A stretch of 64,000 nt of DNA from Candidatus Yanofskybacteria bacterium (GCA_016185545.1 JACPNJ010000005.1:167754-231753); one strand, 5' to 3'. Numbered from the stretch's first letter, positions 8,391 through 38,839 are shown. Notes: generated from the letters alone by a model not told the origin. Numbers and translations: made by a program.

Positions 8391-8403
8391 AATATCCTCC
8401 TTT

Positions 8404-8529: not shown

Positions 8530-8548
8530 TTTTTCTTTTCAAGATGAT

Positions 8549-15272: not shown

Positions 15273-15274
15273 AT

Positions 15275-15381: not shown

Positions 15382-15669
15382 ATGAATCCCGTACGAACCA
15401 AAACGTTCTATTATGCATATGTAATACAAAGCAATAAAGATGGGCGTTTTTATACAGGTTTTACGGTGGATTTACGGAAGCGCCTTAAGGAGCATAATGA
15501 AAGTAAGTATATTTCTTGGACAAAAGGAAGGGGACCGTTTGACCTAATTTATTATGAAGCCTGCAAAAACAAAGAAGATGCCAGGCAAAGAGAAAAATAT
15601 CTTAAAACAGGACGAGGCAAGCGCTTTATTAAAGAAAGATTAAGGCGCTTCCTGGTTCGTACGGGATGA
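15382..15669 (+). CDS. GIY-YIG nuclease superfamily protein (YhbQ/COG2827-like, 95 aa)
   Basis: YYAYVIQSNKDGRFYTGFTVDLRKRLKEHN = GIY-YIG motif block; the ORF runs exactly between the 12-bp inverted repeats. Confidence 0.8.
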   Translation: MNPVRTKTFYYAYVIQSNKDGRFYTGFTVDLRKRLKEHNESKYISWTKGRGPFDLIYYEACKNKEDARQREKYLKTGRGKRFIKERLRRFLVRTG

Positions 15670-17319: not shown

Positions 17320-18258
<939 letters not shown>

Positions 18259-18260
18259 AT

Positions 18261-18381
18261 CCCGTACGAGACACAATGAGTAAACACACAAAAATGGCCG
18301 GTGGCCGGAGTGTCTTTACTGGATAAAATGATAAACTAACTAGGCACGGTTGCGACAGAGTCGCAACCTGTCTCGTACGGG
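18261..18381 (+). repeat. family B palindromic junction element, copy B1
   Basis: terminal inverted repeats cccgtacgagaca.../...tgtctcgtacggg; internal ggttgcgacagagtcgcaacc hairpin; TGA-element-ATG placement. Confidence 0.8.
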
Positions 18382-19431
18382 ATGAAAATATGTTATCTAA
18401 ATATAACCAGGGAAATCCCCCAGCGGGATGTAGTTTATATAAACGGGTTAAAGGAAAATGGTGTTGAAGTAATAGAAATTTTAGATAATTCGCCAAAGTT
18501 AAAAAAATTCTGGCATATTTTTAAAAAACATCGCGCCTTAAACAACAACTACGACATTTTGTGGGTCGGATATTCTGCCCACATACTTGCGCCCTTCGCC
18601 CGTTTAATTTCCAGAAAAAAAATAGTTTTCAACGCACTCTGCTCATTGTACGAGGGACTGATTATATCGCGCAAACAAGCGCCACGGTTTTCACCAAAAG
18701 CTTTTTTGGTTTGGTTACAGGATTTTTTGTCATTTCATTGTTCCTCGTTAATACTTGTGGAAAGCGAGGAACAAAAAAAATTCCTTATCAAAAAGTTTTT
18801 TCTGAAAGAAAAAAAACTGCAAAAAGCTTGGACGGGAGTTAATGACAGGGACTTTTTTTATAATCCGGCAATCAAAAAATCGCCTGTCTTTTCTATAATT
18901 TTTCGCGGCGGATTTCTTCCCGAATCAGGAATTGAACACGTTGCTGAAGCCGCCTCACTTCTTCAAGATGAGAACATACGATTCAGAATTATAGGCACCG
19001 GTGTTATGGAAGATGCCCTAATCAACAAGCTCGCTACTTTTAATTCTAAAAATGTTGAATTTATTTCCGAAAAAATCAAAAGAGTCAGCCGCCCCGAACT
19101 TAACATTAAAATGCAGGAATGCCACATATCGTTAGGCCAGTTATCTGACCACGACCGCCTGAATAGAACCATTCCTCATAAGGCATTCGAGAGTATGGTT
19201 ATGAAAATTCCATATTTGACCGCGCGCAATAAAGCCGTACTGGAATTATTCGCCGAAAACGAAACTTGCTTTTGCTGTAACCCGGCTGACTCTCGTGATT
19301 TGGCCGATAAAATTATTTGGATAAAAAATAATTATGAAACGGCTCAAAAAATCGCCGAAAACGCTTATCAATTATACTCACGCGAACTAACCCCGAAAAT
19401 ACTTGCGAAAAAGGTATTAGAATTGTTTTGA
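18382..19431 (+). CDS. family 1 (GT4-like) glycosyltransferase
   Basis: GT-B C-terminal domain FISEKI...; 349 aa. Confidence 0.6.
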   Translation: MKICYLNITREIPQRDVVYINGLKENGVEVIEILDNSPKLKKFWHIFKKHRALNNNYDILWVGYSAHILAPFARLISRKKIVFNALCSLYEGLIISRKQAPRFSPKAFLVWLQDFLSFHCSSLILVESEEQKKFLIKKFFLKEKKLQKAWTGVNDRDFFYNPAIKKSPVFSIIFRGGFLPESGIEHVAEAASLLQDENIRFRIIGTGVMEDALINKLATFNSKNVEFISEKIKRVSRPELNIKMQECHISLGQLSDHDRLNRTIPHKAFESMVMKIPYLTARNKAVLELFAENETCFCCNPADSRDLADKIIWIKNNYETAQKIAENAYQLYSRELTPKILAKKVLELF

Positions 19432-21348: not shown

Positions 21349-22440
21349 TTACCCTTTTTTATTTAGATTACTTAATATAACATCAATTTCTTTTTTAGCC
21401 ATGTCAAGTGTTATATTTTTCACATCGCCATCGGTACCCTTGAGAACGCGATTAAGTGATCCTGGCGGGCGGTGATACTCTCGCTCATCGGTGGGCCCAA
21501 CTAAGACAAGGTTAGCCACATCAAAGGCATCAGCCGTTACCATTGGGCCGGAATCATTGCCTATGACAAGATCACACTTTGAAATCGCGGCCTTAAATTC
21601 ATCTAGGTTTTGATTAAGCAGGTTAACCGCCGGAACGCCGTCTAAAACCGCGAGCATTGCTGTTATCGGCCCCTCATCTTTACCGGCACCAACAAGCAAA
21701 ATCTTAGCGTTTTGTTCTTCGTAAAAAAATTTAGCTAATTCAGCAAATCTTTCCGCCGGCCACCAGCGCTCGGGCACCGCGCCACCCGGCGCAAAAGCAA
21801 CAATAAAATCGTCCACCGACATATTATTTTGAGTGAAAACATTGTTGATTTTATTTTCAGCTTCTTTGGAAAAATATAACCGGAAATGAGCATCGCCGGT
21901 ATTGGCATTAATTGGCTCCAGCAACTTAAGATATTGTGGCGGGACATATTGACCGGTATAAAACGGCGATGTGATTGCAAATGTTTTTAGAATTGAATAA
22001 GAAACCGAAGTATCTCCTTTGCCGCTCTCGAGTGAAAAAGTAGAAATGGTTTTAATGCCGGCAAGGTATAGCAGAGCAAAACCCATTGTACTGCCAAGAT
22101 TGGCCAAACAAGCAAAATCAATTTTTTCTTTTTTTAATAGTTTAACGACGGTCCAAAAGTTATTTTCGTAATTTATATATTTATCTATATCCGGGTTGTG
22201 TCTGATCACTTCTTCTACCCGACCAGCACCAATAACATATAGTCTGCTATCTGGATACCTGGTCTTAATGGCCCTGAACATGGGCGTGATATAAACAACA
22301 TCGCCCATGTGCGGTTTCCAGCGCAAGATAAGAATCCTTTTGGGGTTTGAGGTAATTTTTTTTGCTCTGCCGCGGAATAAATAATATAAAAGACACAATA
22401 ATAAACTGCCAAGATTTGTAAATTTACTGGATAATTTCAT
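21349..22440 (-). CDS. family 9 glycosyltransferase (ADP-heptose:acceptor heptosyltransferase-like)
   Basis: ILILRWKPHMGDVV and LVIGNDSGPMV GT9 motifs. Confidence 0.75.
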   Translation of the reverse strand: MKLSSKFTNLGSLLLCLLYYLFRGRAKKITSNPKRILILRWKPHMGDVVYITPMFRAIKTRYPDSRLYVIGAGRVEEVIRHNPDIDKYINYENNFWTVVKLLKKEKIDFACLANLGSTMGFALLYLAGIKTISTFSLESGKGDTSVSYSILKTFAITSPFYTGQYVPPQYLKLLEPINANTGDAHFRLYFSKEAENKINNVFTQNNMSVDDFIVAFAPGGAVPERWWPAERFAELAKFFYEEQNAKILLVGAGKDEGPITAMLAVLDGVPAVNLLNQNLDEFKAAISKCDLVIGNDSGPMVTADAFDVANLVLVGPTDEREYHRPPGSLNRVLKGTDGDVKNITLDMAKKEIDVILSNLNKKG

Positions 22441-22547
22441 CCCGTTAGAAGTTTTGCAAACCGGCCACCACTTTGAACAGGTGGCAAACTCACAAATTTT
22501 ATATCAATAAATGCCCTTTATTCCCGTTAGGATTAACTTCTAACGGG
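22441..22547 (-). repeat. family A element, copy A2
   Basis: near-identical reverse complement of A1. Confidence 0.8.
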
Positions 22548-22549
22548 AT

Positions 22550-23407
22550 TCATTTCCTTAAAGTTACGCAAGCCACTGCTCTGGCGGCGGCCACCCCGTC
22601 ATCGTTAATTTTTTTGCCGGTACGGATGTTAAAATATTCCAAACCATCGCATTGCTCCTGTTCACTTATCTGCCAACCATCTTTTGAGTACTTATAGAAA
22701 ACAGTATTAAATTCGGCGGCGCCGAAAGCATCGGCAACTTTTTGCACCATTTGTGAATTAAACTGCTGAAAAAAACCATGGTTTTCGTATCGGCCGAACG
22801 GTACGGTAATAAAAAGTGTTCCGCCCGGCTTCAACATTCTTTTCATTTCAAGAACCGCCGGCAGATAATCGCCGCTGTTTTCCTTGAACCGGTTTTCACC
22901 GGTATATATTTGCGTGTTATCCATTCCTATATGCTCAAGAGTGGAGACACAGGAAATTATATCAAAATTATCGCTTTTGAATGGTGCTTTTCTTATATCG
23001 CTATAAACATACGATACTCCTTTATTCCAAAAACAATTTGATTCCGGATTGAGATTCATTATAAAAAGATTCTTGGGGACAATATTTTTATGTTCAATAA
23101 TTTCCTTAAAATTAAGGGCCGAACCGGCATCCAACATTTCCACACGGTCACCACCGATTTGGGAAATAACCCATGGAATTTCAATGATTCTTTCATCAAT
23201 TCCAATGCCATATTTTTCGGGCAACTTCCCATTATTTTTAAACAGTCTCGATAGTTCATTATTTTTAAGAACTGCGCCAATTTCACGCCATTTATATTCA
23301 AAATAACCCCTGCTCCAAGGCTTGCGGCCGTGCAATTCGTAGGATAATAAATTTCTTCTAGCAATTAAACTTTTTGCAAAATATCTTAATTTTTTGTTAA
23401 ACCCCAT
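22550..23407 (-). CDS. SAM-dependent methyltransferase
   Basis: class I methyltransferase fold (LDAGSALNF...KPGGTLFITVP). Confidence 0.6.
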   Translation of the reverse strand: MGFNKKLRYFAKSLIARRNLLSYELHGRKPWSRGYFEYKWREIGAVLKNNELSRLFKNNGKLPEKYGIGIDERIIEIPWVISQIGGDRVEMLDAGSALNFKEIIEHKNIVPKNLFIMNLNPESNCFWNKGVSYVYSDIRKAPFKSDNFDIISCVSTLEHIGMDNTQIYTGENRFKENSGDYLPAVLEMKRMLKPGGTLFITVPFGRYENHGFFQQFNSQMVQKVADAFGAAEFNTVFYKYSKDGWQISEQEQCDGLEYFNIRTGKKINDDGVAAARAVACVTLRK

Positions 23408-23512
23408 CCCGTTAGAAGTTTTGCAGACCGTCCACCACTTTAAACAGGTGGCAAGTTCACAAGCCTTATATCAATAAATACTTTTTCCCCGTTAGGCTTA
23501 ACTTCTAACGGG
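23408..23512 (-). repeat. family A element, copy A3
   Basis: same termini and interior as A2. Confidence 0.8.
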
Positions 23513-23513
23513 A

Positions 23514-24725
23514 TTAAGCAATACAAATGAAAACTTTACTAAAAATCTCGTTAATCGGCTTCTGATATTTTATCACGAAAAGTTCGCCGTTGTCGTAAAT
23601 TTGGAACACGGTTTTATTGAGGCCCAAGAGCGGTTCCCAAATTTTATTATAAAACCAGCTTGCTTTGGTAAACCGGAAATCGTCATTGTTTGAATAAATC
23701 TGGTTTTCGGAATTGTAGTGGTAGTTGAAGTCCCTTTCGGTTATAAACCCGAGCTGCCTGTTACGCCGATGATATGACAGAAAACAATTTTCAAGAAAAT
23801 CCACTTGGGAAAAAGATATTATCATATCATCCGGATTGACATTCATTTTTTTAACGGCCAAAGCGATTTTGAAATTATTAAATAATTTGCGCGGTTCCAA
23901 TGAATAAAAGATTCTTGGAAAAAATTTAATCTCATCAAAGTACTCCCTTATATCGTCTGGTTTTACAAAATCCCAGCGAGGATGGCGGGAAACGACCAAG
24001 TTTATCTTGGTACTAGGCAAAAAAGACCTTATAAAACGCGCCAGGGATACCGCACTAACCACAAACTCCGTATGCGAAAGGACAAACCAAACTTTACCGT
24101 GAAAATCGGAAAATAGTTCGCGTATATTACGCTCAAAAAGTTCATCTTTTGCGGTGGCTATTCTATTTTCAACAAGCTCTTGTTTGAGGTCGGTTATAAA
24201 AAGTGAGCTTGGCACTTTTGCAAAATATGTTTCGGTAGTCTCAAAGTACTTGTCATTATAGACATTTTTAAAAAGCCGATAAAATAGGTAAGCATTCAGA
24301 CCGAAGCTATAGGCGGAAACCGCCGATGTTGAGTTCACGGCAAAAACACATTTAATTTTTGGAAGATTTTGCCACAAAAACAGTTCAGCCGTTGTTTTGT
24401 CTTGGATTAAATTAAAACCATTTAAGTTTAAAAATAATTGTTTTTTTTCATCAGATGGATGCGGTTTATAATAAAGATCGTACCCACCAAAATTCCGGCG
24501 AATATAATCAAGGCACTCGTTGCATTTAGCAACATAAAACTCCTTGTCTGCAAAACCTGAAGCCAGAATGCCTTTCATATCACTGCCCATAAAAACAACC
24601 ATTTTCGCGCTAAAACCGCTTTTAGAATCCGGTTCTTTTTTGTTTAAACTCAACAAATGAGGCAGTGAAATCCTGACGACATTATTTATTTTTTTATTTA
24701 TACCGACAAATTTTCTTATATCCAT
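23514..24725 (-). CDS. hypothetical GT-B-like transferase with a KPHP motif (paralog of 36483..37706)
   Basis: shares CLDYIR...YDLYYKPHP..FLNL with 36483..37706; HP motif as in CMP-sugar/CDP-alditol transferases. Confidence 0.45.
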   Translation of the reverse strand: MDIRKFVGINKKINNVVRISLPHLLSLNKKEPDSKSGFSAKMVVFMGSDMKGILASGFADKEFYVAKCNECLDYIRRNFGGYDLYYKPHPSDEKKQLFLNLNGFNLIQDKTTAELFLWQNLPKIKCVFAVNSTSAVSAYSFGLNAYLFYRLFKNVYNDKYFETTETYFAKVPSSLFITDLKQELVENRIATAKDELFERNIRELFSDFHGKVWFVLSHTEFVVSAVSLARFIRSFLPSTKINLVVSRHPRWDFVKPDDIREYFDEIKFFPRIFYSLEPRKLFNNFKIALAVKKMNVNPDDMIISFSQVDFLENCFLSYHRRNRQLGFITERDFNYHYNSENQIYSNNDDFRFTKASWFYNKIWEPLLGLNKTVFQIYDNGELFVIKYQKPINEIFSKVFICIA

Positions 24726-24845
24726 CCCGTATGAGACAGGCTGTGATTCTGTCGCAACCGTACCTAGTTAGTTTATCATTGTATCCCGTAAAGACACTTC
24801 GGCCACCAGACCTTCTTGTGTGTTTACCCTTCGTGTCTCGTACGG
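24726..24845 (-). repeat. family B element, copy B2
   Basis: cccgtatgagaca...tgtctcgtacgg; the interior matches the reverse complement of B1. Confidence 0.8.
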
Positions 24846-24871
24846 AATCCATGAGTAAATCTCCGAAAGCC

Positions 24872-26107
24872 CTATTTAGTTTTATAAGCAATGAAGTCTA
24901 CGTGACGAACACCGCATGCACCCTTGAAGAGGTGTTTACATGAATCAATATATGCCTTGACTTCATGTAGGTCTGAATTTTTAACCAAATATACAAATTG
25001 CTTCGCTTCTTTAATAAATTCTGATAACCGAGTTTGCAATGGCTCTAAAACCGATACTTCCTCAAAAGACATATCAACCGCATCAGCTAAATTATTAAAT
25101 TTATCCGCATTAAGTTGAGACTTGGAATTGAAATTTGCAACATAACTGGTCAAGTCTGATAATTCCTTTGAATATTTAAGATAGCCCCCGCCTAGCGCTT
25201 TAACATTTTCCAAATCACCATCTTTTTGTAACAGCCATACGGTTTCTGCAAGAGCAGGCATTCCCGGTATTTCGGCAACATCAAACTTTAACTTATGATG
25301 CACGGAATCTCCAATTACTGGCATTAAAAATGGCGGATAACTTGAATAAAGTTTCAAATTATTTTCTTTTAGCCATTTTAATGTCTCCGCTACGGAAGGA
25401 TCGTCTTGGCTTTGAATTACCCAACGGTCAAATATTATTGCTCTTCGGGTCCGTTTGATAGCCACCTGACTTCGGTCAATATCTTCCTTAAAAAGTTTTT
25501 CACATACATCCACCATATCATCCGGCGATTTGGCATAGTGATACACAGCAAAACGCTGAAGCATGTTTTGAAAACCACCTGCTTTATTAGGATCCCCAAA
25601 AATTAGAAAACCGCCCGGTTTAAGAAATTTGGCAATTTTCTTGAACGCTCCCCGGTTATCTGCAGTATGACTCAAAACTCCTCTACAATGGACGATATCG
25701 TACTTTACAGATGAATCATAATCAAAAATAGATGATTTGATAAACTTGTGCGTACCGCCATTAGAATAGCGCTTAAAAACTTTTTTTGCTATGGCAAGCG
25801 CTTGATCGTTCATCTCTACAAGCGTGCATTTGGCGCCCCATCGCGCTAAAGAAATCGTATTCTCTCCGGTACCAGCACCGAAGTCAATAAGATTGGCATT
25901 AGCAAACATTTTCGGCGGAAATTTAAACAAATCTCTATACATGTATAGCACATTAGCCGTATACTGACGGAATTCTTTTTCTGATTTATCAGAAAAATAA
26001 ATTGAGGGGATTTCCTCCTGAAATGTGCCGAGGGTAGCTTGTTCGACCCGCTTGATTTTAGCAAGTCTTATAGTTTTACTCTTGTGTTTAGTTGATATTT
26101 TTTTCAT
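24872..26107 (-). CDS. SAM-dependent methyltransferase
   Basis: LIDFGAGTGENTISLA motif I; 411 aa. Confidence 0.6.
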   Translation of the reverse strand: MKKISTKHKSKTIRLAKIKRVEQATLGTFQEEIPSIYFSDKSEKEFRQYTANVLYMYRDLFKFPPKMFANANLIDFGAGTGENTISLARWGAKCTLVEMNDQALAIAKKVFKRYSNGGTHKFIKSSIFDYDSSVKYDIVHCRGVLSHTADNRGAFKKIAKFLKPGGFLIFGDPNKAGGFQNMLQRFAVYHYAKSPDDMVDVCEKLFKEDIDRSQVAIKRTRRAIIFDRWVIQSQDDPSVAETLKWLKENNLKLYSSYPPFLMPVIGDSVHHKLKFDVAEIPGMPALAETVWLLQKDGDLENVKALGGGYLKYSKELSDLTSYVANFNSKSQLNADKFNNLADAVDMSFEEVSVLEPLQTRLSEFIKEAKQFVYLVKNSDLHEVKAYIDSCKHLFKGACGVRHVDFIAYKTK

Positions 26108-26213
26108 CCCGTTAGAAGTAGCAACAGCGACAAAAGTTTTAATTACGGCCGCAGTGTCTACTTGAAAAAAAATAACTTTAATTCGTGAACCCGCTAGGTC
26201 TACTTCTAACGGG
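26108..26213 (-). repeat. family A variant element, copy A4
   Basis: same 12-14-bp termini cccgttagaagtag/ctacttctaacggg; different interior. Confidence 0.7.
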
Positions 26214-26226
26214 ATACATTATTAAA

Positions 26227-27360
26227 TTAATCGCAGTAGCTTTCAAGCTTACTATCCCGAACCGTATCAAGAGTACTGCAATGAATACCACCCATAAAAT
26301 AAGAATGCCTGAATGATATCGGGATAGGAGTAATTCCGTGTTTCTCAAGTATTTTCATAAGAGGAATCTGAATTTTATCTACAATGACATGCCCGGGATC
26401 AATGGATAAAAAATTCATTCCAATCCAAGGAGAACTGATGGAGCCAAGGCCGGATTTAACTCCCAGCTTTTCAAGTTCCAGATGAGCCGGTTTTCTGACC
26501 TTTTCGTGAATATCCAAGGTCCTCTGTGGCGTCGGAACAATATCGGAAAAATATATCTTGTCCCATTTTTCAAAAACCGGCGGACAGGTCTCGGGACTGA
26601 CCCGTGTAGCATTCAGCATAACCAGACCCGGACGCAATGCCATGGCTGTTGAATCTATGTGGCTTGAGCGATAGATCTCGCTCGTAGTATGGACCCTATA
26701 TTCATCACCCAAAACACTCTGGAGCCATTTGGCGCCGATATTATTACCGGACCGAGAAACAAGATATAAAAGATCCTTGCCCATTCTTAAAGTATTAGCG
26801 GCTTCAAATAATATCTCATCTTCAGTCAGTCGTGTGTATTTTTGTCCGTCATCATATTGGGATTTACCCTCAACGGTATAAACTTCCATGTGGTCGCCTG
26901 GCACGCGCGGCTTAGGACCGGCTACCCACCTAAAACCGCCTTCTTTAAAATACTCGTACAAAACCGGATATAAACCCATGGCTTCAAAATACCTGTGCTG
27001 TTCCTGCGACGGTGATTCAATGACATTACCGCCGACCACTAAATGCAGATCCCTCATATTATAGACATGGTCACCGACTGCGGAGAAAAATGGTGTCGTA
27101 AATAATTTATTGTTATGGGAAATATCGGGACGAAACACTTTCACGCCAAACGATTTTAAAACATTACAAAGCCCCTCTAAATCTTCGTTAATTTCATCAG
27201 TAAGCCACTGGGGATAAGCCTGGCGGGCTAATTTAACTGATTTTTCTAAAAGATCTTCTGAAACTAAGCCATGTTTAAATACCAAGGGAGCATGGCCATC
27301 TCCCCGGCCAACAATTATTTCTCTCAATTTATCCCACTCATTGTGGCTGTTTATTTTCAT
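26227..27360 (-). CDS. amidinotransferase-family protein
   Basis: N-terminal INSHNEWDKLREIIVG (amidinotransferase signature) and C-terminal GGIHCST catalytic-Cys motif. Confidence 0.65.
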   Translation of the reverse strand: MKINSHNEWDKLREIIVGRGDGHAPLVFKHGLVSEDLLEKSVKLARQAYPQWLTDEINEDLEGLCNVLKSFGVKVFRPDISHNNKLFTTPFFSAVGDHVYNMRDLHLVVGGNVIESPSQEQHRYFEAMGLYPVLYEYFKEGGFRWVAGPKPRVPGDHMEVYTVEGKSQYDDGQKYTRLTEDEILFEAANTLRMGKDLLYLVSRSGNNIGAKWLQSVLGDEYRVHTTSEIYRSSHIDSTAMALRPGLVMLNATRVSPETCPPVFEKWDKIYFSDIVPTPQRTLDIHEKVRKPAHLELEKLGVKSGLGSISSPWIGMNFLSIDPGHVIVDKIQIPLMKILEKHGITPIPISFRHSYFMGGIHCSTLDTVRDSKLESYCD

Positions 27361-27483
27361 CCCGTTAGAGGCAGGTTACGCTCTTTGAGCGTAACCGTAC
27401 CCAAATAGTTTAAATGATAATTCCCGTTTGTATGTTTCTTGCACCGCTATTCTTGATTAATTGCCTGTTGTGCCTCTAACGGG
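27361..27483 (-). repeat. family A variant element, copy A5
   Basis: termini cccgttagaggc/gcctctaacggg; internal ggttacgctctttgagcgtaacc hairpin. Confidence 0.7.
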
Positions 27484-28584
27484 ACGAGTCATCATTCTCA
27501 TTATATTAGCATGGTCTTCTCTGGCAATCTCGTATTTGCTTTTATTCAACTGGCTTGGATCATCCCGTACGAGACAGGTTGCGACCCTGTCGCAACCGTG
27601 CCTAGTTAGTTTATCATTATCTCCAACAGGGACACTCCGACCACCGGCCTTTTTTGTGTGTTTATTCGTCGTGTCTCGTACGGGATCATCCCTAGGAAAC
27701 ATATTGGATTTAAAACCGCATTCAACGCCCAATTGACTTAAAATCTTAAGAGTACTGTCATTGTAAGAATTGGCAGGATGGGCCATGTCCACGGGCGGCC
27801 TGCCGCAAACTCTTTGTATGTGTTCATAATTTTTTTGATACTCTTCTTGCTGTCGTTCAAAAGGAAGTTCGGCAAGCATCATGGGGTGTGAATATGAATG
27901 CAGTCCGATTACATGGCCTTGCCTATTTAAGTAAGCAAGGTTTTCATTTGACATCCATATGTTTTTAGAAAGATCGGCCAAATTCAACCCTTGGTCTTGA
28001 ATAATCGCATCCATAATTATTTCAAATTCCTCACGGCTTAACACGCGATCCCTAATCAAACGAAAGCGCATGTCATTGGTTGAGTAAAACGGGAAAGTCT
28101 TGGAATACCTTACCATATCGGTCTCTTCTAAAACTTTCCTGGCATTATTTCCAAATTTTGATTGAAAAATTTTATCAAAAAAAATATTGTAAAAGTCATC
28201 AATATCTTTAAAAAACTTAGAGCGAAAAACCCGATAAATTTCAAATTTGCCAAGGCCGCCCTCAAATACACTGGAATAGACGAACCAAAATGCTTTTAGG
28301 TTGTACTTGTCCAAAACCGGCAAGACAACATCAAATTGACATAATAGCCCATCATCCAGGGTTATGCAAACATCCCGATTGGTTAATTGGTTCGCCCCCA
28401 ATCGCTTAAGCCATTCTTTAGGATCAAGTATCCGATCTAATCCTACAAACATAAGAATGGCTTCAAAATCCGACATTGATATCGAACCTTGCCCTTTGTA
28501 ATGTTTCCGTTCGTCATGAAAATGATGGAACATTATCCCGTGAGCAACCGAACTGAGATATTTTTTTTTAGATAATTCGCTCAA
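27457..28584 (-). CDS. polysaccharide deacetylase (NodB-homology domain); the 3' ~230 nt of the ORF reads through elements B3 and A5
   Basis: ITLDDG NodB motif and HSYSHP His motif; the frame stays open through the repeat elements, so the true C-terminus is uncertain. Confidence 0.6.
   Translation of the reverse strand: MSELSKKKYLSSVAHGIMFHHFHDERKHYKGQGSISMSDFEAILMFVGLDRILDPKEWLKRLGANQLTNRDVCITLDDGLLCQFDVVLPVLDKYNLKAFWFVYSSVFEGGLGKFEIYRVFRSKFFKDIDDFYNIFFDKIFQSKFGNNARKVLEETDMVRYSKTFPFYSTNDMRFRLIRDRVLSREEFEIIMDAIIQDQGLNLADLSKNIWMSNENLAYLNRQGHVIGLHSYSHPMMLAELPFERQQEEYQKNYEHIQRVCGRPPVDMAHPANSYNDSTLKILSQLGVECGFKSNMFPRDDPVRDTTNKHTKKAGGRSVPVGDNDKLTRHGCDRVATCLVRDDPSQLNKSKYEIAREDHANIMRMMTRPVRGTTGN
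27564..27684 (-). repeat. family B element, copy B3
   Basis: cccgtacgagaca...tgtctcgtacggg; in tandem with A5. Confidence 0.8.
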
Positions 28585-29725
28585 TTTTTTTAATATCTAA
28601 ATAATCCTCGGAAGAAAAACTTAAACCCGAGGTAATTTTTTGAAAGCCCTCGTAAAAACGCGGCTCACTGACAAGGTTATGAATATTGGCAGTTGGTACA
28701 AGAATCAACATTTCATTATTAACCCATGCTTCTTTATTGGAGTCGTTGGAACCCATAAGAGCTTCGTGCAGTTTGTCGCCGACACGATCTCCAATGTATT
28801 TTATTTTTATCACAGCCCCAGAAGACCGCTGCTTCAGTCGTGGATGATTGGGTCTTCTGGGGCTGGATTCCGCCCCACGGTCAAGCCGCCAAGCTTGACT
28901 GTGGGTGATGGTACCACGGGCTTGGCCGTGGGGCTCCATTTTTTTTCCAGAGTAATATTTTTTTATAAATATACTGGCTAGATCTCCCAAGCGGATTGAC
29001 GGCATTTTCAAAATAAAAATTTCACCGCCCGAACAAAGCTGGGCCGCTTTCAGAGTCAAACTAACGGCTTGTTTTATGGACATGAGAAAGCGGGTCGCGT
29101 CTTTGTTGGTAACATTAATCGCGCCGCTGGCTTCTACTTGTTTTACCCACATCGGCAGTACTGAACCATCGGCCCAGGCAACATTGCCGAATCTTACACA
29201 GGCAAGCTTCATTTTATCTCCCAGAAAAAAACTGGAATTTATAAAAAGCTTCTCCATCATAAGCTTGGAAGCGCCAAGCACATTTAAGGGGTTGGCAACT
29301 TTATCCGTGGAAATGGCAATAATTTTTTCAACACCGGCGTGCAAAGCCGCGTCAATAATATTATGTGAACCGACAATGTTAGTTTTCATCGCTTCTGACG
29401 GATTATACTCGCAAAACGGAACATGTTTTAAGGCGGCGGCGTGAAAAACTATGTCTACATTTTTAAAAGCAAGATGTAAACGCTCTTGGTCTCTTATGTC
29501 TCCAATCAACATCCTTAAGTTTTTTGGGTAACGAAGCGCCTCCAATAGGTGGTATTGGCGTGTTTCATTTCTGGATAAAACCCTGATCTGCTTCGGCTTG
29601 GACTTTAAAAGCTGGCGAACCAGTTCTGCGCCAATACTACCAGTGCCTCCAGTTACCAAAATGGTTTTATTTTGAAACTCGTTAATCATAGAAAACAACT
29701 TAAAAATGCAAACCTCAAATCTCAA
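28568..29725 (-). CDS. UDP-GlcNAc 4,6-dehydratase (PseB/FlaA1/CapD-like), with an in-frame 43-aa insertion
   Basis: ILVTGGTGSIG...VLSRNE...HAAALKHVP...YIGDRVGDKLHEAL; 385 aa versus ~335 for homologs. Confidence 0.75.
   Translation of the reverse strand: MRFEVCIFKLFSMINEFQNKTILVTGGTGSIGAELVRQLLKSKPKQIRVLSRNETRQYHLLEALRYPKNLRMLIGDIRDQERLHLAFKNVDIVFHAAALKHVPFCEYNPSEAMKTNIVGSHNIIDAALHAGVEKIIAISTDKVANPLNVLGASKLMMEKLFINSSFFLGDKMKLACVRFGNVAWADGSVLPMWVKQVEASGAINVTNKDATRFLMSIKQAVSLTLKAAQLCSGGEIFILKMPSIRLGDLASIFIKKYYSGKKMEPHGQARGTITHSQAWRLDRGAESSPRRPNHPRLKQRSSGAVIKIKYIGDRVGDKLHEALMGSNDSNKEAWVNNEMLILVPTANIHNLVSEPRFYEGFQKITSGLSFSSEDYLDIKKIERII
28811..28939 (-). repeat. GC-rich triple-hairpin element inserted in-frame in a coding sequence
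   Basis: 129 nt at ~62% GC versus ~40% background; stems gccccagaagacc/ggtcttctggggc, cccacggtcaagc/gcttgactgtggg, ccacgg/ccgtgg. Confidence 0.6.
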
Positions 29726-30150
29726 AATGTAATTTAAAATTCCAAACTATTTTCTGCCTTTCATGGTTAGTACGCCAGCGCCAATAATTTTAGAAATTTC
29801 TTCGGCTTCTTTAAGCAATGGGTTAATTTGATTTCTTAAATTAGGCGTACTTTCAATGAGCAAAATCAACCAATATTTTGTCTCATTAGAACTCTTAAGA
29901 GCAATCTGAAAAAATTTTAAATAATCCAATTTTGAGCTAGCGGCTCGAGCTTCGAAAACGTTGGCTCCAACTGAAGTTGCAGATCGAATCAGTTGATCGG
30001 CTATCGCCCACAAATTCCTACTTTTTCTTACTTCTCCACAAAGTTTAATTATTGCTAAAGAAAAATCAATAAGCCGTTTATTAAATTGCATTTTAAAATT
30101 TACATTTTCATTTTGCATTTTGAGATTTGAATTTTGAATTGGGTAATTTT
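29703..30150. mobile_element. inverted-repeat-bounded module carrying a four-helix-bundle (23S rRNA IVS-type) protein gene
   Basis: AT-rich inverted-repeat arms with core caaatctcaaaatg (29703-29746; 30092-30150, reverse complement) flank the ORF. Confidence 0.55.
29747..30118 (-). CDS. four-helix-bundle protein (23S rRNA intervening-sequence protein family)
   Basis: WAIADQLIRSATSVGANVFEA...YLKFFQIALKSSNETKYWL is characteristic; the first 9 codons lie in the inverted-repeat arm, so the probable start is MQFNK (~30091). Confidence 0.7.
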   Translation of the reverse strand: MQNENVNFKMQFNKRLIDFSLAIIKLCGEVRKSRNLWAIADQLIRSATSVGANVFEARAASSKLDYLKFFQIALKSSNETKYWLILLIESTPNLRNQINPLLKEAEEISKIIGAGVLTMKGRK

Positions 30151-31270
30151 AACTATACTTTTTCAGGACATTAGCAAGGGTATGTGAAATATACTTAATA
30201 TCTTTCTCTTTCAATCCTATATAAAAAGGCAGGGCCAGCGACGACTGACTGACCGCTTCCGAAACAGGAAAGTCCCCTTCTTTGAAACCAAATTTGTCTT
30301 TATAAAAACTGAACAGGTGAATAGACGGCAAATATGGCTTAGTGCTTATTCCTATTTTTTGTAAATCTTCTATAACTCGGTTTCTATCGGTTTTCTTATT
30401 TTTTATCTTTATCACATACACAAACCAGGTAGGATTATTACCTTCGGCTATCTTTGGGGCCTCTACAAGACCAGAAAACGTCTCTAAATGCTTGCTATAC
30501 CAGCCAGCGAGCGCTTGTCTATGTTTTATCATAAAATCGAGCTTCTGCAATTGGGCAGTACCCAAAGCCGCACTCATTTCGTCCATTCTATAATTATATC
30601 CAAGATACTGATGGTCTAACCATTGCATATTCTCGGCTCGACCCTGATTGCGCAAGCTCGCACAAAGCTCATATATTTTCCTGTTGTTTGTTACGACCAT
30701 CCCGCCTTCAGCTGTGGTTATTTGCTTATTGGGGTAGAAAGCAAAAACAGCCGATTCGCCAAAAGTGCCGACCTTTTTCCCCTTATATTCAGCACAAATG
30801 CTTTCGCAGGCATCTTCAATTATTTTAAGTTTATGTTTTTTGGCAATTTTAATTATCGGGTCCATGTCCACCGCCTGGCCGAAAATATGGACTACCAAAA
30901 TGGCTTTTGTTCTTTTAGTAAGACGTTTCTCAATTTCGGCCGGTTCCATGTTATAAGTAACAGGGTCTATATCAACAAAAACCGGCTTCGCGCCGACATA
31001 CAAAATACAATTTGCTGACGCAATAAAAGAAAATGGGGTAGTTATCACTTCGTCGCCTGGACCGATACCAGCAGCGATCATTGCTAGATGCAGACCGGCC
31101 GTACCGCTTGATACGGCACAGGCGTATTTTGTGCCGATTTTTCTGGCAAACAACATTTCAAATTCTTTATACTTGGGGCCTAAGCTTAAATTTCCAGAAC
31201 GCAAAACTTCGAGAACTGTTCGTTCTTCTGATTTCGTTATGTAAGGTTTTGCCAGTTGATATTTAGACAT
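30149..31270 (-). CDS. DegT/DnrJ/EryC1/StrS-family PLP-dependent sugar aminotransferase
   Basis: AFYPNKQITTAEGGMVVTN (Lys/PLP motif); 373 aa. Confidence 0.8.
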   Translation of the reverse strand: MSKYQLAKPYITKSEERTVLEVLRSGNLSLGPKYKEFEMLFARKIGTKYACAVSSGTAGLHLAMIAAGIGPGDEVITTPFSFIASANCILYVGAKPVFVDIDPVTYNMEPAEIEKRLTKRTKAILVVHIFGQAVDMDPIIKIAKKHKLKIIEDACESICAEYKGKKVGTFGESAVFAFYPNKQITTAEGGMVVTNNRKIYELCASLRNQGRAENMQWLDHQYLGYNYRMDEMSAALGTAQLQKLDFMIKHRQALAGWYSKHLETFSGLVEAPKIAEGNNPTWFVYVIKIKNKKTDRNRVIEDLQKIGISTKPYLPSIHLFSFYKDKFGFKEGDFPVSEAVSQSSLALPFYIGLKEKDIKYISHTLANVLKKYS

Positions 31271-31303
31271 TTTGATATTTAAAAACCCAACTAAAAAGTC
31301 GGG

Positions 31304-31705
31304 TTATTTTAATTTACTCACTATCTTGGCCGGACATCCGAAAGCAATAACGTTTGGGGGTAAATTCTTGGTAACTAAACTGCATGCCCCAACGGTCGTA
31401 TTTCTTCCAACCCTTACTCCGGGCAATACGACACTATGGGCCCCGATTCTGCAACCTTCTTCCAACACGACTCTTCCCCTTTTCCCGTCTATTGTTGACA
31501 CTGAATATATATGGCAACCGCCACCGATCTCAACCCGATCTCCTATCTCAACCCCAGCCTGAGCGTTGATATAGGTAAAAGCCCCGATGTCAGTCTCTTT
31601 GCCCAATTTTAAGCCGGAAAGACCCTGAACCATCCAATTCCATTTAGTTAACTTGCCTTCTTTAATTATCGGTTTTTTCCAATTTTTAAATCTTTGTTTT
31701 GCCAT
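31304..31705 (-). CDS. left-handed beta-helix (hexapeptide) N-acetyltransferase (PglD/NeuD/LegH-like)
   Basis: hexapeptide repeats IGDRVEIGGGCHI...IGAHSVVLPGVRVG. Confidence 0.7.
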   Translation of the reverse strand: MAKQRFKNWKKPIIKEGKLTKWNWMVQGLSGLKLGKETDIGAFTYINAQAGVEIGDRVEIGGGCHIYSVSTIDGKRGRVVLEEGCRIGAHSVVLPGVRVGRNTTVGACSLVTKNLPPNVIAFGCPAKIVSKLK

Positions 31706-31716
31706 ATACCGTCCTC

Positions 31717-32874
31717 TTAGTATGTTATTTGCTTTGTTAATAATCTGGAGTTGATATTAATATTTTCCAGTATTTTTGCAACTCTCGGACCGGTCTTGCC
31801 ATCCCCCCAAGGATTTTTAATTTTCTTGAGCCGCTTTAAATATGCTTGATCATTAATAGATTTATAAACGGCTTTTTCTATTTCTTTCTTGTTATAGCCA
31901 ACGTCAATAACATTGGCACCGCGTTGCCGTCCCGTCTGACGAGTACCGACATTCACCACCGGGGTTTGGAAAGAAGACGACTCTATTATAGCGCCGCTTG
32001 AATTCCCCACCCAAACCGCGGTTTCCCGTTCCAGAGCAAGAAATTGCTTGTATTCCAAACTTGGAAATATATGAAAAAGCGGATTGTTTTTTTCTTTTTC
32101 TATGACACTTATAATTTTTCTGCCGCCGGCATCAGCGTGGGGATAAGTTATCACAACAGGCAAATTGAATTTTTTTACTGCCGCCAAGGTTTCTTCCATC
32201 TGCAGACCGGCGTTTTCTACTTCTTCGCTGACGGGGTGCTGAGTCACCAAAATAACATTCTTGCTTGGATCAAGATTCAATTTTTTAAAAAATTCCTTTT
32301 TTGTCGGCAGTTTCTCATTTAATATTACGTCCAATGCCGGCGCGCCCACAATATGGATTCTCCATTTTTCCTCGCCCATTTTTTGAATACGGTCAGCCGA
32401 TTCTTGAATCGCCGGAAAATGAATATGTGATAATTTCGTAATGGCGTGGCGGGCCAGCTCATCAACGGTGGAAGTTTTGTCGCCTCCATGAACATGGCCG
32501 GTGGGAATTCCAAGGTATAAGCAAGCCATGGCCGTGCAAAGCATCTCCGGCCTATCACCAAGAGTCAAAACAAAATCAGGCCTATTTTTGCTAAAAGCCC
32601 CTACCAATCTACTTAAAAAAACGCCTGTAAATTTCGTCATGCCCGGTCTGTCACCTGTTTCAAATCTTGCTTCTATATTTATTGCATTGGGAAATTCTTT
32701 TCTGACATACTGCACTGTTTCTCCAAATTCCGGCATCAGATGAGTCCCCGCGGCATAAACTTGTAAATCAAGCTGCTTGCTTCGGCTAATGGCCTTGAGT
32801 ATTGGGGTCATCAATCCAAAATCAGCGCGAGTACCGGATATATATGCAATTTTTTTCTTATTTTTTAAAATCAT
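31717..32874 (-). CDS. neuC: UDP-N-acetylglucosamine 2-epimerase (hydrolysing), NeuC/LegG-like
   Basis: YISGTRADFG...HVHGGD signature. Confidence 0.8.
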   Translation of the reverse strand: MILKNKKKIAYISGTRADFGLMTPILKAISRSKQLDLQVYAAGTHLMPEFGETVQYVRKEFPNAINIEARFETGDRPGMTKFTGVFLSRLVGAFSKNRPDFVLTLGDRPEMLCTAMACLYLGIPTGHVHGGDKTSTVDELARHAITKLSHIHFPAIQESADRIQKMGEEKWRIHIVGAPALDVILNEKLPTKKEFFKKLNLDPSKNVILVTQHPVSEEVENAGLQMEETLAAVKKFNLPVVITYPHADAGGRKIISVIEKEKNNPLFHIFPSLEYKQFLALERETAVWVGNSSGAIIESSSFQTPVVNVGTRQTGRQRGANVIDVGYNKKEIEKAVYKSINDQAYLKRLKKIKNPWGDGKTGPRVAKILENININSRLLTKQITY

Positions 32875-33913
32875 TTTTTGATATTAAAACATCGGCTTTT
32901 ATATCTTTTACTGCTTTACTGCCTAAAACTTTAAAATAATATTTTGGCTCAAGTCCGGTTCCAGGACGTTTTATGCCTATATTATTGGCAGTAAATAACT
33001 CCCCTCTTTTTGTATCCTTTATAGAAACAATGCTTTTTCTGGCTATGTTCCTTAATGAAAGTTCCTCTGGGGTTGGTTTTTTAACCCGAGATCCCAGTAT
33101 AGCTCCGGTATTTTTAATAGCCGAGATCATTTGACGCAGTTCTTCCGATTCAACAGAGGCATTGTGGTCGGGACCTGGCATATTTTTATCCAAGGTCATA
33201 TGCTTTTCTATTAAAACAGCACCTAGGGTAGCAGCCATAATCGGTACATTAATTCCCAAAGTGTGGTCGGAGTATCCAACTAGAACGCCGAATTTTTCTT
33301 TTAACGCGGCCATTGCCCGAAGATTTACATTTTCAGGCGGACAGGGATATTCAGTGGTGCAATGGAGGAGGATTATTTTATTGTTGCCAGTTTTTTTAAT
33401 ATGGCTTACGGCTCTTTTCACTTCTTCCGTGGTTGCCATTCCAGTGCTTATAATCATCGGCTTGCCTATTTTTGCGGCATATTCCAATACAGGAAGATTC
33501 GTCAAATCACCAGAGCCAAACTTAAAAGCCGGGACTCCTAAGTCATTAAGAAAACCAACGGATTCAAATCCTCCATGGGGAGTAGATAAAAAAATGATGC
33601 CAATTTTTTTACAATGGGCCATAATAGGTTGGTAAAATTTTTCGTTTAGTTCCAGTTTTTTGAGCATTGCCACCTGGCTTTCAATTTTTCCGATGTTTTT
33701 TATTTGGTAAGCAGCCATGGGAACGCTAGCCAGAGCTACTTGTTCGGCTTTGAAAGTTTCAAATTTTACCGCATCCGCGCCCGAATTTTTTGCGACATCA
33801 ATCAATTTAAGAGCCAGCTCAATAGAGCCATTATGATTAACCCCGGCTTCAGCAATAACAAAAACCGGTTTATTAAAACCGACTTCTTTATTTCCGATTT
33901 TTATCGTCTCCAT
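32858..33913 (-). CDS. neuB: N-acetylneuraminate-synthase-family nonulosonic acid synthase (NeuB/LegI/PseI) with a C-terminal SAF domain
   Basis: VFVIAEAGVNHNGS...DAVKFE. Confidence 0.85.
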   Translation of the reverse strand: METIKIGNKEVGFNKPVFVIAEAGVNHNGSIELALKLIDVAKNSGADAVKFETFKAEQVALASVPMAAYQIKNIGKIESQVAMLKKLELNEKFYQPIMAHCKKIGIIFLSTPHGGFESVGFLNDLGVPAFKFGSGDLTNLPVLEYAAKIGKPMIISTGMATTEEVKRAVSHIKKTGNNKIILLHCTTEYPCPPENVNLRAMAALKEKFGVLVGYSDHTLGINVPIMAATLGAVLIEKHMTLDKNMPGPDHNASVESEELRQMISAIKNTGAILGSRVKKPTPEELSLRNIARKSIVSIKDTKRGELFTANNIGIKRPGTGLEPKYYFKVLGSKAVKDIKADVLISKNDFKK

Positions 33914-35680: not shown

Positions 35681-35768
35681 AAATTCAAAAAGCAAATCTC
35701 AAATCTCAAAATCTAATTTATAATTAAAAACTTTCATTTTGGATTTTGAGATTGAAATTTTGAATTTT
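35681..35768. repeat. 'caaatctcaaaat' AT-rich palindromic hairpin (empty copy of the 4HB-module inverted repeat)
   Basis: gcaaatctcaaatctcaaaatc ... gattttgagattg. Confidence 0.65.
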
Positions 35769-36476
35769 TTTCTCTATTTTCTTTTTGTGGGCAAATATAG
35801 TTTCCGCCAAAATCCAATCTTCTATGCCGTCCAAATCAATTGAGCGCCATTTCGGACAGACAACGCCGCGGGTATCGGCATTAATAAATTTTCTGGTTTT
35901 TATAAATTCATTGATTCTTATCATATAGACCATACAGCCATTGAGCAAATAACCGGCGGGCCAAACCTGCCTATTGGTGCTTTCTTTTTCAATTTTATTT
36001 GCCAAAATTAATTTGCCTTGGTCATCTAAATGATAAAGACGCGGATGCGTGTCACATATTGTACAGACGGATCTGACCTTGGAATCTAGCATCCGTTTCC
36101 AGCATTTTTTGATATCGGATATTTCTCTCAATGGCGAAGTTGTTTGTAAAAGAGTTATTATATCCGGCTCATAACCATCCTCTTCTTTTAGTCTTTTAAG
36201 TAGAAGTAAAACGGCGTCAACGACAGGCGATTTATCACCAGCCAACTCCTTGGGCCTTAAAAACGGCACCTCGGCGCCGTATTTTCTGGCCACTGCGGCG
36301 ATTTTCTCATCTTCTGTATCTACAACAATCCTATCAAACAAGCCGGTTTCCCTGGCTTGCTCTATGGCATGTGCAATTAGCGGTTTACCATGAAAAATTT
36401 TGATATTCTTGCCGGGTATGCCTTTAGACCCGCCTCTGGCCGGAATAATGGCTAAATTTTTTATTGATTTTTGCAT
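35724..36476 (-). CDS. neuA: acylneuraminate cytidylyltransferase (CMP-nonulosonic acid synthetase, NeuA/LegF/PseF-like)
   Basis: AIIPARGGSKGIPGKNI...TSPLR; the last ~14 codons are encoded by the palindromic repeat. Confidence 0.8.
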   Translation of the reverse strand: MQKSIKNLAIIPARGGSKGIPGKNIKIFHGKPLIAHAIEQARETGLFDRIVVDTEDEKIAAVARKYGAEVPFLRPKELAGDKSPVVDAVLLLLKRLKEEDGYEPDIITLLQTTSPLREISDIKKCWKRMLDSKVRSVCTICDTHPRLYHLDDQGKLILANKIEKESTNRQVWPAGYLLNGCMVYMIRINEFIKTRKFINADTRGVVCPKWRSIDLDGIEDWILAETIFAHKKKIEKKIQNFNLKIQNESF

Positions 36477-37706: not shown

Positions 37707-37715
37707 GAGTAGAAT

Positions 37716-37800
37716 AATTTAAACCTCAAATCTCAAAACTCAAAATTTAAATTTTGAATTTTAAATTACATTTTGAGATTTGAGATTTGCATTTTGAATT
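37716..37800. repeat. 'caaatctcaaaat' AT-rich palindromic hairpin (second empty copy)
   Basis: aacctcaaatctcaaaactcaaaattt ... cattttgagatttgagatttgcatttt. Confidence 0.65.
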
Positions 37801-37876: not shown

Positions 37877-38839
37877 TTACTCCAGGGTATTTTTTCTCCT
37901 TAATTTGGCCTCAATGGGTTTTTCTGAATCCAATAAAACTTTTGCGGGTTGGCCCAAATAAATAGGTAAATCCCTAAGCTGTACCGTCAATCTGCCCAAA
38001 CCGTATAATTCAAGACTGGCCGCTTGGTCTGTCCCCCACATAGCCCTATCCAGCGTAATGTGCCGCTCAATGACGCAGGCGCCTAATGAGGCGGCGACCA
38101 ATGAAGAATATACCCCGACCTCATGACCGGAGTAGCCGATATGAACCTTGGGGTATTTTTTAATCAGCCGGGGAATATTGGCTAAATGCAATTCATTGTC
38201 TTTACCGGGGTAAGTGGAGGTGCAATGCAAAATTACAAGATTTTCTTTCCCTAAAAATTTAACGATTTTTTCAATTCTCTCATCGTCGGTCATACCAACC
38301 GAGACTATAATAGGCTTACCCTTGGCTTTGATATGGGCCATCAGATTCCTGTCCAGGTTACATGCAGAAGCGATTTTGTAACAGGGCAGGTCAAACTGTT
38401 CAAGAAAGTCAACGCTTCCTTCATCCCATGGTGAAGCAAACCATAAAATTCCTTTCTGCCGGCAATATCGGTCAATTTCCCGATATTCTTTTTGCGTCAG
38501 CTCCAAAGCCCATTTAAGATCCCCGTTCGTAGAATTTTCAAAATCGGAATTGGTCAGTCGCTTGACGGCTTCATCGGAAAGGACTCCTCGTCTAACGGCA
38601 TTTCTCAACACGCCTTCGTTAACTTGGCGCGGCTTTGCCAATTCTTCAGCGGTATAGACAACCGGCACGGTTCTTTTTTGAAATTTAACCGCGTCACATC
38701 TCTGCGCAACTGCCCCGTCAATAAGCTTTTTAGCAATCTCAATATCGCCGTTATGGTTTATTCCAATCTCCGCAACTATAAAAACCGGCTGGTTGTATCC
38801 AATCTCTTTGCTTCCTATTTTCAACATCTCGGCTCCCAA
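37877..38839 (-). CDS. NeuB-family (sialic-acid-synthase-like) enzyme without a SAF domain
   Basis: VFIVAEIGINHNGD...DAVKFQKR. Confidence 0.7.
   Translation of the reverse strand: MGAEMLKIGSKEIGYNQPVFIVAEIGINHNGDIEIAKKLIDGAVAQRCDAVKFQKRTVPVVYTAEELAKPRQVNEGVLRNAVRRGVLSDEAVKRLTNSDFENSTNGDLKWALELTQKEYREIDRYCRQKGILWFASPWDEGSVDFLEQFDLPCYKIASACNLDRNLMAHIKAKGKPIIVSVGMTDDERIEKIVKFLGKENLVILHCTSTYPGKDNELHLANIPRLIKKYPKVHIGYSGHEVGVYSSLVAASLGACVIERHITLDRAMWGTDQAASLELYGLGRLTVQLRDLPIYLGQPAKVLLDSEKPIEAKLRRKNTLE

Follow-up and report, generated by a model that had tools for sequence, protein, structure and literature searches.

A GC-rich double-hairpin element of 129 nucleotides, probably mobile, inserted in frame in a dehydratase gene of a Candidatus Yanofskybacteria bacterium

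Introduction

How did a conserved dehydratase gene come to hold 43 codons that its closest relatives do without, and what kind of DNA are these codons made of? The question is raised by a stretch of 64,000 nt from a Candidatus Yanofskybacteria bacterium (GCA_016185545.1, JACPNJ010000005.1:167754-231753), analysed at its full length and hereafter called the window, in which an initial annotation had singled out positions 28811-28939, inside a PseB/CapD-like dehydratase gene, as a GC-rich palindromic element inserted in frame and reminiscent of the Rickettsia palindromic elements (RPEs). The results of this work show that the segment is a unit of 129 nt with fixed ends, which two Patescibacteria, only distantly related, carry at unrelated sites. 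It is likely that this is a discrete DNA element, GC-rich, with two hairpins, non-autonomous, and either mobile still or mobile until recently.

The features on which the argument rests are the following, in window positions and with the evidence for each.

28568-29689, minus strand: host gene, a UDP-GlcNAc 4,6-dehydratase of the PseB/CapD/Pen type (Polysacc_synt_2); Pfam, PDB matches, homologs
28811-28939, minus strand: inserted element, 129 nt = 43 codons (MEPHGQ...SSGAV); gap against 53 homologs, empty sites, second copy, GC content
28813-28865, no strand: hairpin H1, perfect 15-bp stem CAGCCCCAGAAGACC / GGTCTTCTGGGGCTG (28813-28827 with 28851-28865), 23-nt loop; inverted-repeat search, folding
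28872-28934, no strand: hairpin H2, 16-nt arms GCCCCACGGTCAAGCC / GGCTTGGCCGTGGGGC (28872-28887 with 28919-28934), one mismatch; inverted-repeat search
28858-28877, no strand: H1/H2 junction, within a 41-nt block 100% conserved between both copies; inverted repeats, alignment
28797-28810, no strand: distal flank of the target, ATAAAAATAAAATA in gene sense; found unchanged in the empty orthologous sites, not duplicated; ortholog DNA
28940-28947, no strand: A-tract of the target abutting the element (T8 on the plus strand; Lys-Lys codons); empty ortholog L065, flank of the second copy

Results

The open reading frame (ORF) that holds the insertion matches PF02719 (Polysacc_synt_2) at 6e-89, and the nearest solved structures to its product are Pen (6bwc) and PseB/FlaA1 (2gn4). 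The 385 aa first given for this protein are counted from a TTG (ORF 28568-29725, minus strand), but translation probably starts from the ATG at 29689, which leaves 373 aa. The protein is nevertheless longer than its homologs, put at about 335 aa by the initial annotation: 51 of the 53 aligned have 329-339 aa and one has 350, and nearly all of the 120 best-scoring homologs of a protein search, the named sources of which are Candidatus Yanofskybacteria, Parcubacteria or Patescibacteria, have 322-350 aa. Alignments of 11 and of 54 sequences place 43 extra residues exactly between ...YYSGKK and IKIKYIGDR..., that is between Lys250 and Ile251 in the C-terminal domain, and none of the 53 other aligned sequences has a residue in these columns. 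A loop specific to the lineage was rejected on this count.

The same conclusion is reached from DNA. Deleting 28811-28939 restores the ...YYSGKK-IKIKYIGDR... junction found in every homolog, the closest orthologs (88-89% aa identity outside the insert) are without it, and the uninterrupted site is found in three orthologous genes at 82-85% nt identity (loci L002, L064 and L065). In L065 the empty site reads ...AGAAAAAAA followed directly by ATAAAAATAAAATACAT, whilst the window, with the same flanks, has ...GGAAAAAAA, the 129 nt and then ATAAAAATAAAATACAT; the empty allele of the window locus would read ...GGAAAAAAA joined straight to ATAAAAATAAAA. The filled site is the L065 site plus exactly 129 nt, with no target-site duplication (TSD) other than, at most, an ambiguous A or AT, which leaves the boundaries uncertain by 1-2 nt, so that the element could equally be written TGGAG...GCTGTGA. 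A 6-nt duplication, AAAAAT, was considered and rejected, since the pre-insertion protein would then be two residues shorter than every homolog. The exact in-frame insertion first proposed is thus borne out by homolog junctions and empty sites alike, and so is its being an inserted palindromic element instead of a lineage-specific loop.

Outside the insert the host gene is intact, with none of the residues invariant across the 54 aligned sequences lost. In an AlphaFold2 model built from the 54-sequence alignment (mean predicted local distance difference test, pLDDT, 85.9; predicted template-modelling score, pTM, 0.86) the protein outside the insert superposes on Pen (6bwc, target-normalised TM 0.90) and PseB (2gn4, 0.88), and the inserted residues, 251-293, form coil, with pLDDT <50 at 258-284, between a helix (234-245) and a strand (294-298). 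In the homolog alignment proposed initially as a check of the loop position, the insert columns are empty in 53 of 53 sequences. In the insert, basic residues (7 Arg, 1 Lys, with 3 His) outnumber acidic ones (2 Glu, 1 Asp) and Ser, Gly and Pro abound; it is predicted to be a disordered Arg/Ser/Gly/Pro-rich loop of 43 residues; the dehydratase carrying it would presumably stay active. As a separate matter, the catalytic Tyr (YxxxK) of short-chain dehydrogenases/reductases (SDR), present in Pen and PseB, aligns with a Leu in the PseB-like clade of the host protein, where residues 136-142 read NVLGASK. L138 is invariant in the 11-sequence alignment of closest homologs, but in that of 54 sequences its column is missing from the list of those invariant or conserved to at least 90%; the substitution recalls the Met-for-Tyr of CapE/WbjB-type enzymes.

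What was inserted differs from its surroundings in composition and in folding. GC content is about 0.60 over the element, and 0.617 over 28820-28939, against about 0.40 in the flanks and in every 2-kb bin of the window, in line with the GC-rich island described at the outset. The three hairpins of 13, 13 and 6 bp described with it are real as hairpins, but the main stems are a little longer, the perfect 15 bp of H1 and the 16 nt with one mismatch of H2, and the second 13-bp hairpin (28874-28905) and the 6-bp one (28914-28931) are alternatives within H2. Both main hairpins have a common 7-bp foot, AGCCCCA / TGGGGCT, and TGGGGC-8 nt-GCCCCA can pair across the linker between them. H2 begins 4-6 nt from one end of the element and H1 stops 2-3 nt from the other, the sole inverted terminal match being AGCCCCA (7 nt), 3 nt from each end. 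Folded as RNA, 151 nt around the element reach -70 kcal/mol for the gene-sense strand and -77 for the other (z-scores of -6.8 and -6.7, with 0 of 200 shuffles as stable), and DNA parameters give z = -6.6. In a sliding scan of 130-nt segments (mean -24.1, sd 6.8 kcal/mol) the element is the lowest in energy of the whole window. Two other GC-rich, low-energy intragenic segments, 3076-3295 and 39826-39955, have no long inverted repeats and were set aside as ordinary coding sequence.

The structure has no counterpart among curated RNA families. Rfam gives no match at gathering threshold in the window, and over 28700-29050 nothing better than chance level (E >=0.6, far below gathering scores), and no tRNA-like gene was found. 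An origin from a known RNA family, an intron, an intein or a tRNA was therefore rejected, with neither Rfam match nor intron or intein hallmarks to be seen, and an attC/integron site and a TA-duplicating mariner-type transposable element of the miniature inverted-repeat kind (MITE) were rejected from the end sequences of the element.

The search for further copies that the initial annotation had proposed led to one more locus. The element's two stop-free translations, run through a word-indexed search of 5.8 billion proteins, returned a single cluster, P0121, a 62-aa ORF whose gene lies on three contigs (JGI 3300025323, ENA ERZ28563803 and ERZ27254752); at 99.6-100% identity, these are independent assemblies of one locus in one organism, referred to here as L003. 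Its copy is likewise of 129 nt and has the same ends as that of the window (ATGGAG...GCTGTGA), with no indels and 86% identity over 134 nt. It is found at the 3' end of a 408-aa gene of the DegT aminotransferase family which, with the element removed, would have ended in ...RKNEN and a stop, so that the insertion lies 8 nt before the original stop; being out of frame, it has replaced the last three codons and given the gene a new tail, ...RKNGAPRASP and a stop. No empty site was found for this copy, the next best DegT relative in the database being 52% identical.

The organism of L003 is Parcubacteria-like, with about 41.6% GC, and its proteins are some 37-55% identical to their window counterparts. 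Because the element is far better conserved, at 86%, than these host proteins, its horizontal movement is implied. The L003 locus also has a 180-nt palindromic element with 54-nt arms, in two copies (1499-1678 and 2138-2317, 89.5% identical) that flank a NUDIX gene; the first of them starts 10 nt past the hairpin element, a sign that small mobile elements may be clustered here.

Both copies lie inside coding sequence and directly 3' (gene sense) of a run of A, of 7-8 nt in the window and of 5 nt in L003; AAAAA thus precedes the element in two of two copies, a count to be read with the A/T-richness of both genomes in mind, and the sequence that follows is A(Y)(R)AAAAT in both. The A-run belongs to the target and not to the element, since an A7 run is already present in the empty ortholog L065. 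On the plus strand, H2 stands directly before the T-run and the two resemble an intrinsic terminator, the sole terminator-like site in the region scanned.

Comparison of the copies indicates what has been kept. Over the 130 aligned core columns, 1 of 62 stem columns differs, at the already mismatched position, against 18 of 68 other columns (Fisher p = 3e-5). The stem of H1 is identical in L003 whilst its loop differs at 8 of 23 positions, the arms of H2 are unvarying apart from the mismatched position, and divergence over the loops altogether is about 26%. No pair among the 32 of the two main helices varies between the copies, and the sole compensatory change, A-U to G-C, falls in a small inner helix; what the stems show is invariance of sequence, not covariation. 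In the dehydratase frame, 12 of the 14 codon differences are non-synonymous and 2 synonymous, leaving the peptides at 71% aa identity, and the encoded peptide is under no coding constraint. Two of the six frames of the window copy are free of stops, the sense frame being the only one open in both copies. A stop-free frame of 43 codons is not unusual in a segment of 60% GC (the chance is about 0.3 by our own estimate), and the length has a 1-in-3 chance of being a multiple of three; taken together, survival within a useful gene would give just such an in-frame insertion.

Copy number was assessed in the collections searched (some 15 billion proteins in total, besides the nucleotide sets named below) and in the window, as distinct from the remainder of the host genome and from ENA and Logan DNA. 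A covariance model of both copies (R1), run with filters off, finds one copy in the window, its next match (E = 0.16) being an unrelated palindrome at 5213-5360; 13-mers with two mismatches allowed give chance-level matches only across the window, and a foot-motif pattern there matches the element itself only. A further R1 match (E = 0.03) at 1085-1201 of L066, a locus syntenic with part of the window, sits in an SDR gene of normal length and was taken as chance. The conserved 18-mer core has 52 matches in 185,579 GTDB species genomes, all of them chance (18-23 nt, in high-GC genomes), and a 20-mer recovers only the known L003 contig from JGI metagenomes. No copy was found in viral contigs with three patterns, nor in plasmid and phage collections with blastn, and full HMMER with a two-peptide profile against 1.84 billion protein representatives returned P0121 and one spurious repetitive protein. 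Beyond the L003 locus, then, the search for other copies came back empty in the collections searched.

A mobilising enzyme was sought in the window. Its sole transposase gene, of the rve/DDE type (6962-7921), is unrelated to the element, as are the ends of its only insertion sequence (IS; 6917-7925), and Pfam scans of 59 window ORFs gave no HUH/Y1 (TnpA, RAYT), TnpB or reverse-transcriptase gene.

Neighbouring genes and other repeats

The genes of the window form a large island for the biosynthesis of glycans and nonulosonic acids. Syntenic with L066 is a row made of cytidylyltransferase, NeuB, UDP-GlcNAc 2-epimerase, hexapeptide acetyltransferase, DegT and PseB-like genes, and the island is also rich in genes for SDR, radical-SAM, methyltransferase and glycosyltransferase proteins. 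Three paralogs of the NeuB family (nonulosonic acid synthase; 32858-33913, 37877-38839 and 56035-57078) and three cytidylyltransferase genes suggest several parallel pathways for sialic-acid-like sugars in a small-genome bacterium of the Candidate Phyla Radiation (CPR). Contigs from Logan match the window at 100% on both sides of the dehydratase gene (24353-27484 and 30111-31794); such matches come from five runs (SRR12113384, SRR12113420, SRR12113422, SRR12113424 and SRR12113430), and the organism is thus present repeatedly in a sample series; several of the contigs end at or near repeats.

Other small repeats litter the window, the interval 27.4-30.2 kb alone having three independent insertions relative to orthologous loci. 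They are unrelated in sequence to the 129-nt element, as the initial annotation had it. Two families are listed here, the first with terminal inverted repeats (TIRs).

18255-18390 (minus strand), 24717-24852 (plus strand), 27560-27686 (plus strand): TIR family of about 127-136 nt (CATCCCGTACGAGACAGG ... TGTCTCGTACGGGAT), 82-91% identical; two of the copies intergenic
15269-15386, 22436-22553, 23405-23486: repeat family of about 110-118 nt, 79-85% identity, with CCCGTTAG/CTAACGGG inverted motifs, at gene boundaries

The TIR-family copy at 27560-27686 lies in a polysaccharide-deacetylase ORF (27457-28584) that adjoins the PseB gene, and it is stop-free (...PRDDPVRD...LVRDDP...); this would make two in-frame repeat insertions in neighbouring genes. 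CCCGTTAGA motifs of the second family also occur at 26098 and 27351. On the other side of the PseB-like gene, between it and DegT, a gene for a 123-aa 23S-rRNA-intervening-sequence protein (PF05635, 29747-30118) lies within 29698-30140, with AT-rich inverted repeats AATTCAAAATGCAAATCTCAAATCTCAAAAT on either side; it looks like an inserted cassette, because its two neighbours adjoin or overlap each other in L002, L065 and L066. The AATTCAAAATGCAAATCTCAAATCTCAAAAT repeat is found again at 35682-35769, 37713-37800 and 59297-59343. At 6819-8532, the IS of about 1 kb with its rve/DDE transposase gene (6962-7921) was apparently inserted into a repeat of about 130 nt, whose split copy is at 6819-6916 and 7926-7960 and whose intact copy (97% identical) is at 8404-8532; the repeat has a terminator-like hairpin at its end. 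An intergenic palindrome at 5193-5355 has 29-nt arms, 97% complementary and 105 nt apart, with an inner 18-nt pair and -55 kcal/mol, and in sequence it too is unrelated to the 129-nt element.

Discussion

If the 129-nt unit is a discrete DNA element, as seems likely, it is probably mobile but rare. Its hairpins, with their 7-bp foot AGCCCCA/TGGGGCT, could be the recognition signals of an enzyme acting in trans and encoded elsewhere, which would move the unit without duplicating the target; a single-strand/hairpin-specific transposase of the HUH type, or another site-specific recombinase, would be a suitable candidate. The element may have passed horizontally between lineages and would have gone in at the A-tract site of the PseB-type dehydratase in a phase free of stops, of which it has only two; there, 129 being 3 x 43, the frame was kept and the element would simply be translated. 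The insertion could persist because it is stop-free, divisible by three and placed in a predicted disordered loop. Any effect of the mRNA structure of -70 kcal/mol on translation or stability is speculative.

Several observations weigh against this interpretation. The inverted terminal repeats of the element are of about 7 nt and no TSD is seen, which places it outside the classical definition of a MITE, and its hairpins are nearer to the ends than those of IS200/IS605. The stems are invariant without covarying, so that selection for structure as such is not demonstrated. All the collections searched hold only two loci, with one copy in the 64 kb of the window, and neither a parent element nor a candidate transposase was found. 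Finally, no Logan contig on record covers the PseB gene and its two junctions with the element; the exact host protein sequence is likewise not on record in the databases searched.

The low copy number and the absence of a TSD would also be expected of a retro-copy of a small structured RNA, in which a plus-sense RNA ending in H2 and a U-tract would have annealed through that tract to genomic A-tracts and been reverse-transcribed into a nick, yielding sporadic copies incapable of further movement. On the plus strand a GC-rich hairpin and then a T-run do close both copies (T8 in the window, T5 in L003), and invariant stems with drifting loops would fit selection on a master RNA gene. Yet the A/T-run is already in the empty site and is hence target, no master gene with the conserved 18-20-mer core appears in the GTDB species genomes or the JGI metagenomes, Rfam has no match, and the window ORFs scanned yielded no reverse transcriptase; such an origin is unlikely. 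Conserved stems, paired stable hairpins rich in GC compared with the genome, and a copy in L003 at a gene's 3' end, the typical position of REPs, bring to mind instead a cis-acting stem-loop module of that kind, stabilising mRNA 3' ends or serving as terminator or insulator, and spread by recombination. Its natural place would be gene ends, and the intragenic copy of the window would be accidental or mildly deleterious. Even in L003, however, the copy is within the coding sequence, the original stop being 8 nt beyond its insertion point, other gene ends of the window show no such family, and REPs have tens to hundreds of copies and a GTAG head, absent here, all of which makes this an improbable account too.

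That the peptide was exapted and functions in the dehydratase, as an adaptive loop of the lineage, is much harder to uphold. The frame is kept without a stop, at a site between secondary-structure elements, but orthologs at 88-89% identity do without the loop, the peptide diverges freely (12 non-synonymous against 2 synonymous codon differences), conservation tracks the stems of the nucleic acid, the loop is predicted to be disordered, and the L003 copy is not part of any such protein; we consider it very unlikely. An assembly artefact or chimera, which the initial annotation had wished excluded, could appeal to the fact that no independent public contig covers the junctions. It is highly improbable all the same, given that the insertion is codon-exact with both flanks collinear with three orthologs, that the inserted unit is real, being seen in three independent assemblies of another organism, and that 19 substitutions separate it from the L003 copy, hence no cross-contamination from that genome. 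Hardly credible, at last, is that the insert goes untranslated, by ribosomal bypassing or by removal from the mRNA. A very stable structure does come right after Lys-Lys (AAA AAA), with AAA codons again just downstream, but an insert in frame and without a stop makes bypassing needless, and Rfam has no intron-like or other signature for it; group I and group II introns, for their part, are longer than 129 nt allows.

A bolder interpretation, possible though doubtful at present, is that of an undescribed, hairpin-guided mobile unit of Patescibacteria which moves between distant lineages and inserts without duplication at intragenic A-tracts, by a novel hairpin-specific transposition or by retro-insertion of a terminator-ended small RNA. 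Were it true, then together with the in-frame TIR element next door it would mean that an invasion of proteins like that of RPEs arose independently in another group with reduced genomes. Taken alone, a single low-copy insertion leaves the general picture unchanged. It nonetheless offers, in filled and empty sites of orthologs about 83-85% identical in DNA, a clean and dated case in which a conserved enzyme has taken up a structured selfish element, which would act as a new surface loop, in an ultra-small CPR host. Between the two hosts, protein identity is only about 37-55%, and stems that do not vary at that distance speak for horizontal movement and for a mobilising enzyme with sequence specificity. 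Inserts of this sort also lengthen genes, and assemblies of CPR genomes from short reads can break at them.

Comparison with known systems

A full-text literature search gave no paper on MITE-like, palindromic or other small mobile repeats in Patescibacteria/CPR, and the comparison has to be made with other groups. RPEs comprise ten families, integrated 44 times in one genome, and lie in frame in unrelated metabolic genes of a reduced-genome bacterium, where translation adds to the protein a peptide that its fold accepts (reviewed in PMC10969869). The present element, like them, is palindromic and within about 100-150 nt (129 nt, stems of 15 bp and 16 nt, z = -6.8), and its window copy adds 43 stop-free codons at a structurally tolerant site. 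It differs in its scarcity, with a single copy in the 64 kb and two loci across all the data searched, in its unrelated host phylum, in the out-of-frame copy of L003 and in a peptide that is not conserved. Of the resemblance to RPEs first suggested, the in-frame palindromic insertion holds, whereas a proliferating family that repeatedly invades genes, if that is what is meant, is not supported, with one copy in the window, two loci overall and the L003 copy out of frame. The element works like an RPE in outcome; the likeness drawn is one of outcome, and it is assigned neither to the RPEs nor to any other named family.

In-frame translation of small palindromic mobile elements is already known from RPEs, from QMITEs and from ERIC/BOX (PMC10969869, PMC5896051). 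QMITE1 and QMITE2 of Coxiella number about 50 copies per genome, with clear TIRs as well as direct repeats, and, like intragenic MITEs such as ERIC and BOX, they are small, structured and non-autonomous and overlap ORFs, often at 3' ends, as the present element does (PMC5896051). QMITEs also encode basic peptides and may be common to distant taxa (PMC5896051), two further points of likeness, and the L003 copy changes the C-terminus of a gene in the manner of QMITE2. The element departs from QMITEs in its inverted terminal match of 7 nt, in having no target duplication and in its very low copy number. With MITEs at large it has in common its length (129 nt, under about 500), the absence of transposase coding and presence/absence at orthologous sites, whilst it is without TIRs of at least 10 nt matching a parent IS and without a TSD.

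Yeast mitochondrial genomes, which are AT-rich, contain GC clusters, palindromic mobile units rich in GC that are found sometimes in protein-coding sequence and some of which are bypassed during translation. The element resembles them as a GC-rich palindromic unit within coding sequence of an AT-rich genome; those clusters, however, are organellar, eukaryotic and shorter, and the bypassing of some of them has no indication in its counterpart here.

PATEs, derived from IS200/IS605, and the REP/BIME/REPIN elements moved by HUH (Y1) transposases have hairpins at their ends, no long TIRs, no TSD and a short conserved flank. The present element has subterminal hairpins at both ends, conserved stems and variable loops, an A-tract beside two of two copies that may be such a flank, and neither long TIR nor TSD. 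Its hairpins, on the other hand, are 3-5 nt from the ends as opposed to about 10-20 nt, there is no GTAG head, the scan of window ORFs gave no TnpA/RAYT gene, its copies are far fewer than those of REPs, and they are found within genes rather than between them. The features that would define membership are thus present in part, and an anatomy of hairpins at both ends without TIR or TSD is closest to that of elements derived from IS200/IS605 or of the REP type.

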